Below, one piece after another: positions 3,001 through 64,000 of a stretch of DNA of 64,000 nucleotides. The stretch covers positions 768,001-832,000 of the forward strand of contig CAVPLT010000004.1 of assembly GCA_963706325.1 (NCBI GenBank). Reading direction: 5' to 3'. The DNA comes from an uncultured Nitrospiraceae bacterium. Its GTDB lineage: Bacteria; Nitrospirota; Nitrospiria; Nitrospirales; Nitrospiraceae. Position numbers: made by a program. The number at the start of each line of letters is the position of its first letter. Position 1 is the first letter of the stretch.

Positions 3001-6000
3001 AGCACCTATGGCCAGAATACATCCGAAGCCTGTTAACGAGGTCGAATGTTTCAGAGTGATGGAGAAAACGGTGAAGGCGTGGAGCACATGAAACAAAAAG
3101 CGGTCTTTTTTGCCACGAAGGGGTTAGTGGGGAACGAGAGCTTGCACCTCGACCCAACTTCACCATTGCTTACATCGGAAGAATGGAAGGCGCTTCGGCT
3201 TTTGACGCTCGCGGGATATACCATCGTGTTGTTTACCACGAAGAACATCCCGCATTACGCACCATGCCGAAACCATGAGTGGAGCGTCCCTTACGATGGG
3301 GCTAGGAATCAGCCGCTCTCTCAACATCCCAACGAGGTGAGCAAACAGGTCACGACACTGCTTGAAGCGACGGCCAAACTACGGGTCGACTTGTCAGGAT
3401 CTTGGATGGTCGGTGATCGGCTCGATAGTATTGAGGTTGGACGGCTAGTGGGGTGCAGCACAATTTTTGTGGCCAACGGAAGCGAATCGAGATGGGATAT
3501 GACGGCCATGCGGTGGCCTCATTTGATTGCAGGGGATCTTTGGGAGACGGCCTGTTTGATTGTGACCTCTGACGGGTCGTCTGTTGAAGGTTTGTCGTCT
3601 CATCTCGAGGATGATATGGACAGTATATAAACACCGCCTGCTCATTCCAGTGTTGATGGGGTTGAGCTGAGGGATGACATTCAGTGAGACCTATAGACTG
3701 CATTATCTGCCAAGGCCCACGATCCCCACACGTATGCGAGCTCCTCTCTTGGGCCATTGCTCTTTAGGGTCGAGAACGCGACCTCTATTCGAACAAATAA
3801 GCTGGTCGACGATCTCACCGCAGGCAAAACAACGCCATGCAGCGGCCTCATTGTTCATCAATCCACCTGCTCCATCACGAAGCTCAACCGGGAACATCAT
3901 ACTGTGACAGCGATGACAGCGCATGTGTGTGTCCTCTTAATGTGATGAGCTGCATGTTAGAAAGGACTGAATGAATTCGGCACTAGGATCTACCCTAGCC
4001 GAATCACGCTCGAAGGAGTTTCTGTACCGCTAGGGTTGTCCCTAGTGGGCAGGGGTATAGTCCATCCGTACAGTGCCCCACAGCGGGAGAGTGATGCATA
4101 GGCGACCTTGGTGCCATCCCTCTATCTGTTTGCTCAGCCGAAGGACGAATGGACCGTCCAAAAAGTGAGGTGTTCAGGTGTGTCTTTTTAAAACACAGGG
4201 TCGAATTCTGGCCTGGTTTTTCGCGATAGGTGGGACGTTTCTGTTCTTGACCGAGGGCGGAGCGGTCGCGCAGCCAGAGAACTCTCAGGATGAAAGACGG
4301 CCTCAAGGGAATCGCGCGATTGAGAAGAAGAAGGAAAAGGGCTTCGAGGGAGTAGATTTTTCTTATGATTTGTTCGGCGCTCCTCCTGGTCAATCCGCCA
4401 CTAAGATTGCAGAAGAAGTCATGGCGAAAGACGTGGCCGACAAGCCCAAGGTGATGGCCAAGCAAGTACAGCTGTTGAAGGAGCGCTACAGACTGGATTG
4501 CAAAATCCACTCCGGCGTTATGATGACCAAAGGAAAGCCGCAGCCCATAGGGCCTACGGTCCAATTGAAAGAAGGCGTCGGCTGGGACAAGTTGTCGGAG
4601 ATGACCCCGGAGGAAATCCGGAAACAGAAAGTATTTCCCGCCGGATTCATGCGATTACCGCACGTCAAACACGATGTCGGTGGGCAGGTCTTTCCTCAAA
4701 AGCAGATCGACCAGTTTCCTCGGCTCGAACGATTCGATGTGGATTTCGACCTTCCGGATTGTTTTCTCCCGGAGTTTCCGCCGCCGATTTTCTTGACGAC
4801 TCATCCTGAGCTGGGTGATGTGTCGCAGGGAGAAGTGTTGAGTGCGGACAATTTCGATCGTTTATTTCGAGGCTTGATCACTCCAGTTCAACTGGATGGC
4901 CTGAGAATGTTGGTGACTCAATTTCCACAAGAGGAGTTCAATCTCACGCCCGATCGGAAATCGCCCAAGCCCAGCCTGGGCGTCGCCTGCTTGGATTGTC
5001 ACGTGAACTTTCATACCACCGGGCAGTTTCATTTAAATCCCGATACGAGACCGCAACGGGATCGACTCAGATTGGACACCGTCAGCTTGAGGGGAATGTT
5101 CAATCAGCAGATTCATGGATCGAAACGAAGCATTCGATCGGTGGAAGATTTTACGGAATTTGAACAGCGCACCGCTTATTTTAACGGCGATCAAATCCGA
5201 GCCATCAAAAAGGGGATGAATGTGATCGATCGGCTGCAGGTCGCCCACATGGCACAGATTCAAAACATGATCGATTTTCCCCCGGCCCCGAAGCTGGATC
5301 CCATGACCGGGCGGCTGGATCGTACCAGGGCCGATCAGCAGGAGATTGCCGGCGAGGAGCTCTTCTTCGGTAAAGCGCGTTGTGCGGCCTGCCATCAACC
5401 TCCCGCCTATACCGATCATATGATGCATGATCTGTTTCTCGAGCGGTTTGGCGCCGAAGCGGACGGGCCGATCAAATCCTTTGCGCTGCGGGGCATCAAG
5501 GATTCACCGCCCTATTTCCATGATGGCCGATTGCTTACGTTGGAGGACACGGTCGAGTTCTTCAACCTCGTCGGTGGGCTGAAGCTGAACCGTGAAGAGA
5601 AAGCTGCGTTGGTCGCTTTCATGCGCGCACTATAACCTCATGCCGTTCACCACATAAAGAGGCCGCTGTTTGCACCATTGACCGATCGACCCAGGGACGA
5701 TGGAGAAGGGAATCATGATCGCAATCGGAAAAATTATTCCAGACGGCACCTATCAGGCGTATCACGAAGAAAAGATCCGGCCGGTGGCCCTCAATGAGTT
5801 TCGGGGGCAGTGGCTGATCCTCATGTTTTACCCAGGAGATTTCACCTTTGTCTGTCCGACGGAATTGGCTGAGACCGGCCGACTCTATCCGGAGTTCAAA
5901 AAATTGGGAGCGGAAGTGTGCGGGGTGAGCACCGATTCGGTCTATGTTCATAAGGCCTGGCATGACAGTTCCCCGACGATTCGATCCGTCAACTTCCCTT

Positions 6001-63000: not shown

Positions 63001-64000
63001 TTCGTAGCCAAATAATTCGACCGGATAAGCCACGGTACTGAGACGGCATTTTCAGCCTGCCGGAGTCGAGACGGGCTGTTGGACGACAATGGGGAAGTTT
63101 GACTCGACGACACTGACGTAAACCGTATCCGGCGGAATCGGAGCGTGGTCGGCCAGGTCGTTGATGAGACGATGTTTTGTGCGGCGGGCTGGAACAGGGC
63201 CGCGATAGGGCCCGGCTGGTTCGAGATCCGCAAAAATAGAGAGTGATAGAGGCCTCTGCGTCGATGTCGGATGCGTTCAGCAGGCACAACTTTCGTGAAT
63301 GGTCATTTGAGGGGACGGCCCATGACTTTGTGACGGAATATTTCCTTCGGCAAGTAGCCAGCCTGCCAGTCCGCTGGCCTCCATCACTCCTCCTCTACAT
63401 ATCAACTTGTTAGATAATCTCCCGAATTTTATTCTCTACCACTGTCTTCATCAGCTCCCATCGGTTTTCTGTTCCCCGGGCGATGGATTTGGTAAATTGC
63501 CATGCCTGTTCGATCGTAATTTTTCCCGGCAGTGGTGGTTCGAAAGGATCAATGACTGCCTGGACTACGACGGGGCCCGGCATGGAGAAGGCCTGCTGAA
63601 GGACCTGTCTCACCTGTCGGGGATCTTCAACGGTCAATCCCGTGGCTCCGCACGATTGGGCAAAGAGGGCAAAATCGATCGGCTGCAGTTCCACGCCATA
63701 TTGTGGGTTGCCCTCGAATGCCAATTGCTCCCACTTGATCATACCGAGCAGATTGTTTTTTAACACGATGATCTTCACGGGAAGCGCGTACTTCACCAGA
63801 GTAGCCAATTCTCCCATTAACATGGTGAATCCTCCGTCCCCTGCAATACAGACGACCTGGCGGCCTGGATAGGCGATGCCGGCTGCGAGACTGTAGGGGA
63901 GGCCGTTACCCATCGACGCCAGTGTGCCGGAGACGGAAAATTCCATGTCGCCCTTCATGCGGATATGACGCGCGGCCCAGGTTGTGACCGTGCCGGTGTC

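Follow-up and report, generated by a model that had tools for sequence, protein, structure and literature searches.

CTAGG-N6-CCTAG is a real motif in this genome, and we put at about 70% the probability that it is an activator box for NarL/LuxR-family dimers, with a pair of response regulators as its readers, a clade of histidine kinases as their input, a survival programme as the output and some sites owned by sister regulators. The strong evidence for the box is its count at a spacer of 6 together with its register to the promoter.

First, perfect matches number 22 genome-wide, versus 0.29 expected from half-site frequency, and the CTAGG dyad at other spacers from 0 to 20 gives 0–5 perfect matches each across the whole genome, confining the excess to spacer 6. 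The window, the whole 64-kb stretch of DNA analysed here, holds 17 sites with at most one mismatch, 9 of them perfect; shuffles gave 0.76, and none of 100 shuffled windows reached 17. The first-pass annotation had put the densest stretch at C4:770–840 kb, and indeed 19 of the 119 genomic sites and 10 of the 22 perfect ones lie within C4:771–841 kb, against 2.0 expected. Using separate gene calls over the whole genome, we reproduced its count of 22 of 22 perfect sites as non-coding and found 93 of 119 in the class with at most one mismatch, where it had 94. Its expectation of 19% was too low: CTAGG dyads at spacers 2–5 and 8–12 are non-coding in 121 of 224 cases (54%), and with so high a baseline the non-coding share is not the main evidence for the box.

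Second, of 186 box orientations 30 have a TAnnnT −10 hexamer beginning exactly 23 nt past the box, versus 1.4 expected, and eight control dyad sets gave at most one −10 match each at this offset. Relatives repeat the register, with 39 such matches among 102 boxes. A T following the box is found on the promoter side only (31 of 47), and the downstream gene lies on the same strand as the box in 39 of 47 cases, versus 85 of 137. The register shows the geometry of the box: with the −10 fixed 23 nt past it, and position relative to the start read from that hexamer, the 16-bp inverted repeat has its predicted centre at about −43.5, abutting a −35 signal that is weak in the boxed promoters; transcripts are predicted to start about 36 nt past the box end. 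Escherichia coli NarL at yeaR has a 16-bp site centred at −43.5, immediately upstream of the −35, and requires Lys174 (PMC10853779). By analogy, the box is a candidate activator site, and a NarL/LuxR-family dimer bound there would activate σ70-type promoters from directly upstream of the weak −35. The boxes, regulators and targets of the window are as follows.

3983–4045, two perfect boxes back to back, that at 4030–4045 facing a 485-aa gene at 4178 with weak MauG/di-haem matches only
8270–8285, plus strand, two-mismatch box with a −10 in register, before the CBM48–glgC–treY genes
10175–13066, plus strand, treY (TIGR02401, above cut-off), target operon
13278–13293, plus strand, perfect box before two PRC-barrel genes
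15923–15938, minus strand, perfect box before a GT4 glycosyltransferase gene (14741–15895), kept in relatives
16779–16794, minus strand, one-mismatch box with a −10 at 24 nt
19559–19574, one-mismatch match inside a coding region, without a −10, probably chance
20280–20418, divergent boxes at 20280 (minus strand, two mismatches) and 20403 (plus strand, one mismatch), before two genes without known family
22072–22758, plus strand, RR-A, orphan NarL/LuxR response regulator with REC and GerE domains (Pfam) and the helix T-I-E-F-H-K-T
22944–23600, minus strand, RR-B (g02518), transcribed towards its paralogue RR-A, to which it is 44% identical; boxed promoter
23755–23770, minus strand, RR-B promoter box, −10-like TATGAA at 23731–23726, predicted start about 23719, composite score 19.9
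23783–23798, plus strand, sod promoter box, −10 TAACGT at 23822–23827, predicted start about 23834
23881–24537, plus strand, Fe/Mn superoxide dismutase, target
25566–25581, plus strand, perfect box before a ferritin-like gene (25910–26452) and glgX
28751–28766, plus strand, two-mismatch box facing csbD (29062–29301), TA in register
43434–44501, minus strand, boxes at 43434 (two mismatches) and 44486 (perfect), both with a −10 in register, small ORFs without known family downstream
48314–48378, divergent boxes, 48314 towards an FAD-Rieske oxidoreductase (46680–48224) and 48363 towards ku–topIB–treZ, with a −10 at 48402–48407 and a predicted start about 48414
48659–52564, plus strand, target cluster of ku, bacterial TopIB and treZ
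58077–58092, plus strand, one-mismatch box with a −10, before a beta-barrel gene (58415–59053)
59825–62428, ligD, following the beta-barrel gene, without its own box
62467–62482, plus strand, two-mismatch box facing a 46-aa ORF, TA in register

RR-A and RR-B form a conserved tail-to-tail pair that is orphan, with no kinase adjoining, in every locus examined. Both NarL-type genes lie where the first-pass annotation had placed them, with two boxes between g02518 and sod. Its proposal of g02518 as the regulator stands in so far as that gene has a boxed promoter; as sole regulator g02518 does not hold up, being co-inherited with RR-A, the better conserved of the two in the helix that reads DNA and in the lysine that contacts polymerase. 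The lysine equivalent to NarL Lys174 is kept in 58 of 58 RR-A and 47 of 58 RR-B sequences. RR-A is likely to be the main activator and is the likelier polymerase contact, with RR-B an induced partner or modulator. The plus-strand promoter of the 20403 box may also read through into RR-A across a gap of 231 bp.

Third, presence of the sites follows presence of the pair. Among 151 Nitrospiraceae genomes, whose kin are not independent, at least five sites occur in 54 of 60 genomes with the pair (mean 12.5) versus 6 of 91 without it (mean 1.3). This contrast persists within seven genera, and the reversed control pattern shows no difference between genomes with and without the pair. The source genome is itself Nitrospira-like. 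There are exceptions in both directions: G069 (13 sites, 91% complete), G108 (9) and G021 (7) have many sites, yet the pair was not found in them, and G049, G128 and G096 have the pair yet only one or two perfect sites. The claim that no strict site occurs without a g02518 orthologue was not reproduced in five same-genus genomes lacking one, which have 1, 2, 4, 4 and 6 perfect sites, a comparison in which the samples and the 'strict form' may differ. Each of 165 genomes from other Nitrospirota families has at most two sites. More remote NarL relatives show no excess either: the 59 loci surrounding them hold three spacer-6 sites versus 4–13 at other spacers. A plasmid search returned relatives of 37–39% only. 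Because RR-A and RR-B are always co-inherited, the genome profile does not separate them, and because kinases and Ku (44 of 60 pair-bearing genomes versus 5 of 91 others) travel with them, any co-inherited factor fits it. In G062, a single contig with six clade kinases and Ku in which the pair was not found, there are no sites.

Fourth, an orphan HisKA_3 kinase clade with the H-box LHDY or LHDH occurs in 59 of 60 pair-bearing genomes versus 7 of 91 without the pair, comprises up to about 19 PAS/GAF kinases, and tracks the site number (Spearman 0.73). In this genome six of seven clade kinases lie behind a box; one member, at C7:13583–16495, closes the stressosome operon, and another closes the OsaA-like operon. 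The window contains the following kinases and boxes.

31313–32899, minus strand, orphan PAS-HisKA_3-HATPase-REC kinase of the LHDY clade
33033–33269, divergent kinase promoter region with boxes at 33033, 33067 and 33254, the last with −10 TATAGT at 33293–33298 and a predicted start about 33305
33297–39942, plus strand, OsaA-like multi-HAMP-GAF-HisKA-HATPase-3xREC hybrid kinase in two ORFs, split near 35854–35909
40013–42046, plus strand, REC-PAS-HisKA_3-HATPase-REC kinase of the LHDY clade, directly 3′ of the HAMP kinase

In many relatives the multi-HAMP kinase is a single frame of around 1800–2450 aa. We rejected it as an obligatory input: it occurs in only 29 of 60 pair-bearing genomes, versus 6 of 91 without the pair.

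In our preferred reading, the most likely readers of the box, to judge from co-inheritance, would be RR-A and RR-B, and the orphan, cytoplasmic-looking clade kinases would probably phosphorylate them. Many stress inputs may converge on the pair, as clade members close the stressosome operon and directly follow the OsaA-like kinase gene. Gene content suggests an output of glycogen and trehalose turnover, end-joining repair, superoxide dismutase, ferritin-like, CsbD, YtxH, BON and PRC proteins and many small proteins. We propose positive feedback, as RR-B and most of the kinases are among the boxed genes.

A more far-reaching version, which we hold only tentatively, has a two-regulator core replacing a stress sigma factor, with up to about 19 HisKA_3 kinases of the one clade feeding an RR-A/RR-B heterodimer on an asymmetric box. 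The orientation would be fixed, with a distal half CTAGGG and a looser proximal half; the stressosome and the OsaA-like multi-HAMP kinase would feed the kinases, induction of RR-B and kinases would form an amplifying loop, and the whole module would move as a unit, gained or lost together within genera. In a lineage with a K-to-R change in the RR-A helix, the promoter-proximal half keeps its inner C in 16 of 35 cases versus 128 of 149, and the distal half keeps its G in 26 of 35 versus 133 of 149; the stronger proximal loss is a hint of asymmetry, but probably represents one evolutionary event.

The box could instead be a family-wide one read by all six or seven NarL paralogues with the EFHK helix, so that small regulons are overlaid and the pair is one contributor; we consider this unlikely as a full account. 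The first-pass annotation had noted several sister regulators of similar helix, and we found four or five in this genome, of which g03105, g00019, g04126 and g01647 share the recognition helix and form one clade with the pair. Perfect sites adjoin g04126 and g00019 and their orthologues, same-genus pairless genomes have 1–6 sites, and G046, which lacks the pair, has one site beside its g04126 orthologue. Against this, sites are nearly absent from three pairless genomes rich in such paralogues (G084, 5 matches and 0 sites; G136, 7 and 1; G100, 4 and 1), and each sister regulator adjoins its own kinase, none of these kinases having a boxed promoter. A minority of sites probably belongs to the sister regulators.

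The same observations bear on the extent of the regulon. Boxed target families include Ku, treY, treZ, glgX, CsbD, YtxH, BON, YflT, PRC, hemerythrin, superoxide dismutase and ferritin-like proteins, families typical of general stress responses, which they cover in part. The claim that the box, of NarL/LuxR type, stands before general-stress genes was thus borne out for these families, but many stress-type paralogues at other places in the genome have no box in the promoter (3 of 3 further csbD, 2 of 2 further ytxH and 3 of 3 further BON genes, a second treZ and a second trehalase). Given these paralogues, four sister helices, sites in pairless genomes and the absence of a Pfam family from about 45 of 87 scanned genes lying first behind a box, a single regulon of about 90 sites could not be upheld; we expect boxed promoters to number about 55–75, and 57 promoters reach a score of at least 16. 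Regulation of nitrite oxidoreductase through the box was rejected: three nxrA copies lack a box and have promoter scores of −0.4 to 4.2, with a threshold of 16. Contigs of one soil metatranscriptome (share 0.07) touch several genes but reveal neither start nor strand nor level, and with DNA possibly in the sample they received no weight.

We also scanned 9 of 14 sigma-domain genes, finding RpoD, RpoD-like, RpoS-like (below cut-off), RpoH-like, FliA and ECF factors and, among these nine, no SigB/F/G-type factor above cut-off. The RpoS-like factor is present in 127 of 151 genomes and a second RpoD-like factor in 147 of 151; being near-universal, neither of these two alternative group-1/2 factors, the ones profiled, tracks the box.

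A further possibility, which we regard as improbable, is that the pair reads the box for one specific state, such as dormancy, low oxygen, desiccation or stationary phase, with the RpoS-like sigma factor, and that 'general stress' is a mere look. Mycobacterial DosR/DevR, which appears among the structural relatives, offers the model: it is a NarL-type regulator with a G/C-rich palindrome and a dormancy regulon of some tens of genes, a single regulator served by two GAF kinases with hypoxia/NO input. The storage, repair and haem/iron genes fit such a state equally well, as do the RpoS-like factor, the weak −35 and the stress paralogues outside the regulon, whereas up to 19 PAS/GAF clade kinases, a stressosome and an OsaA-like kinase indicate many inputs. 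Unlike DosR/DevR, the system here has two regulators, a kinase clade and other targets.

That the palindrome is no protein site, only an RNA hairpin, repeat element or by-product of CTAG avoidance in genes, is very improbable and already largely refuted: CTAG is the most under-represented tetramer of the genome and other-spacer dyads are often non-coding, but spacer 6 alone is enriched, one-mismatch variants that break pairing are enriched too, spacer and flanks have no complementarity beyond chance, covariation is absent and flanks are unrelated, the box lies upstream of the transcript at a fixed distance to the −10, its presence follows the regulator genes and a true repeat of the same genome behaves differently. 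The direct repeat CTAGG-N7-CTAGG is also in apparent excess, with 14 perfect matches; as CTAG is self-complementary, we read this as a shadow of the box.

The label 'NreC-type' given to the box in the first-pass annotation does not fit the partner, operon and targets of NreC, whose half-sites may be spaced two bases wider than those here. Staphylococcal NreC is, like RR-A and RR-B, a NarL-type regulator with a GC-rich palindrome, but it is encoded with NreA (GAF) and NreB (an Fe-S PAS kinase) and targets narGHIJ, nir and narT (PMC8139620); the pair loci have no nreABC operon or adjoining kinase, and nar, nir and narT are absent among the targets. The PimM/PAS-LuxR consensus of Streptomyces, CTVGGGAWWTCCCBAG, matches far better (PMC9774167): both sites are 16-bp palindromes of the −35 region of the form CTVGGG...CCCBAG, with outer bases CT-GG...CC-AG, a variable position 3 and a G bias at position 6, a likeness between the sites. 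The central AWWT of PimM is not required here, the box centre being nearly free; PimM has PAS input and polyene-cluster targets, whereas both regulators here have a receiver and survival-gene targets. NarL shares the REC-HTH architecture, the 16-bp inverted repeat at −43.5 and the αCTD-contact lysine, and differs in site sequence, in its NarX-type partner, in its nitrate-respiration targets and in its base-reading residues 188/189/192 (K/V/K, versus E/F/T in RR-A and E/F/A,G in RR-B).

Among general stress responses, those of SigB, EcfG and RpoS overlap the targets found here in Ku, CsbD, YtxH, YflT, treYZ, glgX and BON. The upstream modules RsbRST and an OsaA-like kinase recall SigB (stressosome, RsbK, OsaABC), and the proposed convergence of many kinases on one node, with feedback on the regulators, recalls EcfG–PhyR with its many HWE/HisKA_2 kinases, SigB and RpoS. 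Unlike in those responses, the promoter here appears to be specified by a TAnnnT −10 together with an adjoining activator box, and a HisKA_3 kinase gene closes both the stressosome and the OsaA-like operon.

Together these features point to a general stress response run by activator proteins instead of a dedicated sigma factor, and suggest an output for stressosome and OsaA-type kinases outside SigB-bearing bacteria. A literature search found no described stress regulon for Nitrospira; the analysis provides a box, a new −10 register with predicted starts, two candidate activators, a kinase clade and a target list, each open to testing with RNA-seq and purified proteins where no genetic system exists. 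In soils and treatment plants, Nitrospira drive nitrite oxidation as well as the complete oxidation of ammonia. Some Nitrospiraceae lineages have the module and others lack it, about 40% of the sampled genomes carrying it, and this difference may matter for how they survive drying, starvation or storage.

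The 16-bp box CTAGG-N6-CCTAG occurs 22 times in perfect form in the genome (4.24 Mb, 8 contigs; 4393 genes from a purpose-written caller, 81% coding, or 78% under the stricter scoring applied for masking) versus 0.29 expected, and each remaining spacer within 0–20 gives 0–5 occurrences. Seventeen boxes with at most one mismatch lie in the window, versus 0.76 in shuffled sequence. The first-pass annotation placed 22 of 22 perfect and 94 of 119 one-mismatch sites in non-coding DNA; our gene calls reproduce the former and give 93 of 119 for the latter. Its 19% non-coding baseline is an underestimate: at spacers 2–5 and 8–12, these half-sites are non-coding in 121 of 224 cases. 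This background amounts to about 13 non-coding matches per spacer, so that about 80 of the 93 sites would be real. The density it described at C4:770–840 kb holds, with 19 of 119 sites versus 2.0 expected in C4:771–841 kb (the island). Among 165 genomes of the same phylum outside Nitrospiraceae, none has more than two sites.

The boxes stand in a fixed register to a −10 hexamer. TAnnnT starts exactly 23 nt past the box in 30 of 186 orientations (93 non-coding sites, both directions; 1.4 expected per offset) and 22–24 nt past it in 47, versus at most one at offset 23 in each of eight control dyad sets. Relatives show the same (40 loci, 102 boxes: 39 at offset 23, 6 each at 22 and 24). In the 47, a T directly after the box (31/47) is confined to the −10-facing side, and the position-6 G is strong in the half distal to the −10 (35/47), its mirror C being weak in the proximal half (16/47). 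The downstream gene is on the same strand at 39 of 47 sites with the register versus 85 of 137. Because a six-base −35 element and a 17-base spacer sum to 23, standard sigma-70 geometry would make the box abut the −35, with its centre near −43.5. At yeaR, the 16-bp site of Escherichia coli NarL is reported to have its centre at −43.5, immediately upstream of the −35, and activation there to require contact of Lys174 with the alpha subunit (PMC10853779). We predict with high confidence that the box is a NarL-type activator site at −43.5.

Complementarity of spacer and flanks is no higher than chance, which rules out an RNA hairpin.

A box-plus-−10 model trained on relatives' loci alone (68 sites, at loci orthologous to the island) finds 57 genes at scores of at least 16 versus 3 in reversed sequence, and 90 versus 14 at scores of at least 14. 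These counts suggest about 55–75 boxed promoters and not the single regulon of about 90 sites first proposed.

Two orphan NarL-type response regulators lie in the island:

22072–22758, + strand, RR-A (g02505 in our gene calls)
22944–23600, − strand, RR-B (g02506; g02518 in the first-pass annotation, whose genome handles also differ from ours)

They are 44% identical and lie tail to tail across genera among the loci listed, both proteins being recovered from the same loci. The closest relatives of RR-B (82–98% identity) are in records titled Nitrospira or Nitrospiraceae, with one titled Nitrosospira. The genome has 25 GerE matches; six regulators have the recognition helix (T/A)-(V/I)-E-F-H-K in common and a seventh is close. 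The helix-sharing regulators form one clade, and four of them adjoin their own HisKA_3 kinase.

Across 151 Nitrospiraceae genomes at least 85% complete, RR-A is present in 60 (E below 1e-72, a threshold chosen after inspecting the search results, shifts of which alter little). At least five perfect sites occur in 54 of these 60 (mean 12.5) versus 6 of the 91 others (mean 1.3). The contrast persists within 7 genera, and the reversed control pattern shows no difference between the groups. Because related genomes are not independent, we give p-values no weight. One genome, G032, has the pair by synteny yet falls below the threshold, and two marked unpublished (G061, G006) enter only the 'without pair' tallies and are the sole basis of no claim. 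RR-B, first proposed as the likely regulator, is indistinguishable from RR-A in this profile. All 58 RR-A sequences conserve E-F-H and the Lys174 equivalent; of 58 RR-B sequences, 55 conserve the E and 47 the lysine. Boxes no more than 300 bp upstream occur at 39 of 57 loci for RR-B and at 13 of 57 for RR-A. We infer that RR-A is the main activator and RR-B its induced partner. Quite probably the pair is the main reader of the box.

Helix and box also change together. In seven genomes RR-A reads F-H-R, and in three of them RR-B also has L for E. In a hand count of oriented CTAG-N8-CTAG sites with a −10 downstream, the 35 matches of these seven comprise 9 strict, 7 distal-relaxed, 17 proximal-relaxed and 2 relaxed in both halves; the 149 matches of 12 F-H-K genomes that we picked for comparison comprise 114, 14, 19 and 2, respectively. 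This joint change links the box with the pair and gives a hint of asymmetry in the box. It was probably a single event, because the variant proteins cluster together in the tree. For both regulators, the copies at loci L110 and L111, from different genera (G116 and G060), are grouped at full support, which suggests that the pair was transferred, or its ancestry shared, between the two genera.

The pair is very likely not the sole reader. It was undetected in three genomes with sites (G069, 13; G108, 9; G021, 7), and same-genus genomes without it keep 1–6 sites, one adjoining the g04126 orthologue; the earlier statement that strict sites are missing without the orthologue was thus not reproduced, although its sample and its strict form may differ from ours. 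Because of these retained sites, sister regulators (NarL paralogues with a similar helix) very likely read the same box locally.

The module is tracked by the box and not by either sigma factor profiled, an RpoS-like protein (127/151 genomes) and an RpoD-like one (147/151). The genome has 14 sigma-region-2 matches. None of the nine sigma genes scanned (RpoD, RpoD-like, RpoS-like below cut-off, RpoH-like, FliA, two ECFs and two without a match at 1e-25) passes the SigB/F/G cut-off.

In total, 183 of 3826 genes are downstream of a box. Targets in the window include treY, treZ, glgX, Ku, TopIB, SOD, a ferritin-like protein, PRC barrels and CsbD; outside it are YtxH, BON (twice), YflT, two hemerythrins, RsbR, YceI, DoxX, a PRK06701 SDR, a Zn-dehydrogenase and a ROK kinase resembling PpgK, below cut-off. 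Ku is above cut-off in 44 of 60 pair-bearing genomes versus 5 of 91 others. Several stress-gene paralogues have no boxed promoter (the other three csbD, two ytxH and three BON genes, the second treZ and the second trehalase), and this speaks against a complete stress regulon; because the marker list began from the island, unbiased testing is limited to these paralogues. The likely, if putative, function remains a general, multi-input stress response.

Of 100 first-downstream genes, 87 were family-scanned with 54 neighbours, 12 in the window were scanned separately and one was unscanned; about 45 of the 87 have no Pfam family. Boxed genes without a family include 4178–5635, 19407–20192 and 20575–21840 in the window and C4:876389–876826; the last three, which relatives also carry close to the regulator pair, are candidates for new stress proteins. 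Surrounded by boxed genes is a topoisomerase VI A/B pair (C4:878718–881914, L146) with a one-mismatch site 459 bp upstream, and in the island TopIB adjoins ku. Trehalase, HAMP kinase, HAD hydrolase and debranching-enzyme genes of the island are split (17351–18654, 33297–39942, 44656–46375, 52623–54644), by either assembly indels or decay; many relatives encode the HAMP kinase in a single frame. Immediately upstream of two nitrite oxidoreductase (nxrA) copies are sister NarL/HisKA_3 pairs and an NtrC-type regulator (C3:55856–61820, C7:682958–697963; L164, L165, L159). The promoter of the NtrC-type gene is weakly boxed (score 15.4); no boxed promoter precedes the nxrA copies.

Seven of the 20 HisKA_3 matches form a separate clade with the H-box LHDY or LHDH (support 100/99, long branch), including:

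31313–32899, clade kinase in the window
40013–42046, clade kinase in the window
C7:8618–16495, rsbR-rsbS-rsbT-phosphatase-kinase operon, its last gene a clade kinase

None adjoins a NarL gene, and six of seven have a box upstream, directly or via an operon. Clade kinases occur in 59 of 60 pair-bearing genomes versus 7 of 91 others, and their copy number (scored up to 19) follows site number (Spearman 0.73). They would pass phosphate to the regulator pair. The kinase at 33297–39942, with many HAMP domains, GAF, HisKA and three receivers, resembles OsaA of Streptomyces, a protein whose route of signalling is reported to be unclear (PMC9739842). It is accessory, as only 29 of 60 pair-bearing genomes have such a kinase (6 of 91 others). 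Single-contig genome G062 combines six clade kinases with Ku and the HAMP kinase, and has another NarL-type gene after the kinase; the pair was undetected and sites number 0. At C1:149565–151072 (L124), a lone GAF protein with a boxed promoter abuts a short clade kinase; the two are a two-gene sensor or else parts of a single split gene.

Other non-coding dyads are present. CGTAC-N7-GTACG (25 copies, for example C4:628367 and C4:107099; none in the window) is the core of a longer REP-like repeat, mostly 40–60 bp from a gene end and often with a GCAA loop. GTATC-N6-GATAC (23 copies, for example C1:422245 and C7:88307), often paired in long intergenic regions and lacking the −10 register, is a second transcription-factor site, possibly that of a sigma-54 activator. 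GACGC-N12-GCGTC (15 versus 1.4) and TGTCA-N4-TGACA (10 versus 0.9) are also enriched.

The literature searched, mostly outside subscription journals, RegPrecise-type databases and supplements, yielded no description of the box or regulon, which does not show absence. NreC is reported to bind a GC-rich palindrome before nar, nir and narT, its sequence not given in the accessible text (PMC8139620); the PimM consensus is located in the −35 region (PMC9774167); an account of CRP/FNR regulons in a Nitrospira MAG leaves CTAG unmentioned in its accessible part (PMC8510549); and the match in PMC5715377 is to a primer only. There is a small precedent in Desulfovibrio, where a response regulator is linked to stress genes (PMC3333781). 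We put the whole putative model, of box, pair, kinase inputs and stress outputs, at about 0.7. Every component has precedent; what we did not find in print is their wiring, from stressosome and OsaA-like inputs through an orphan kinase clade and a regulator pair to a sigma-70-type promoter.
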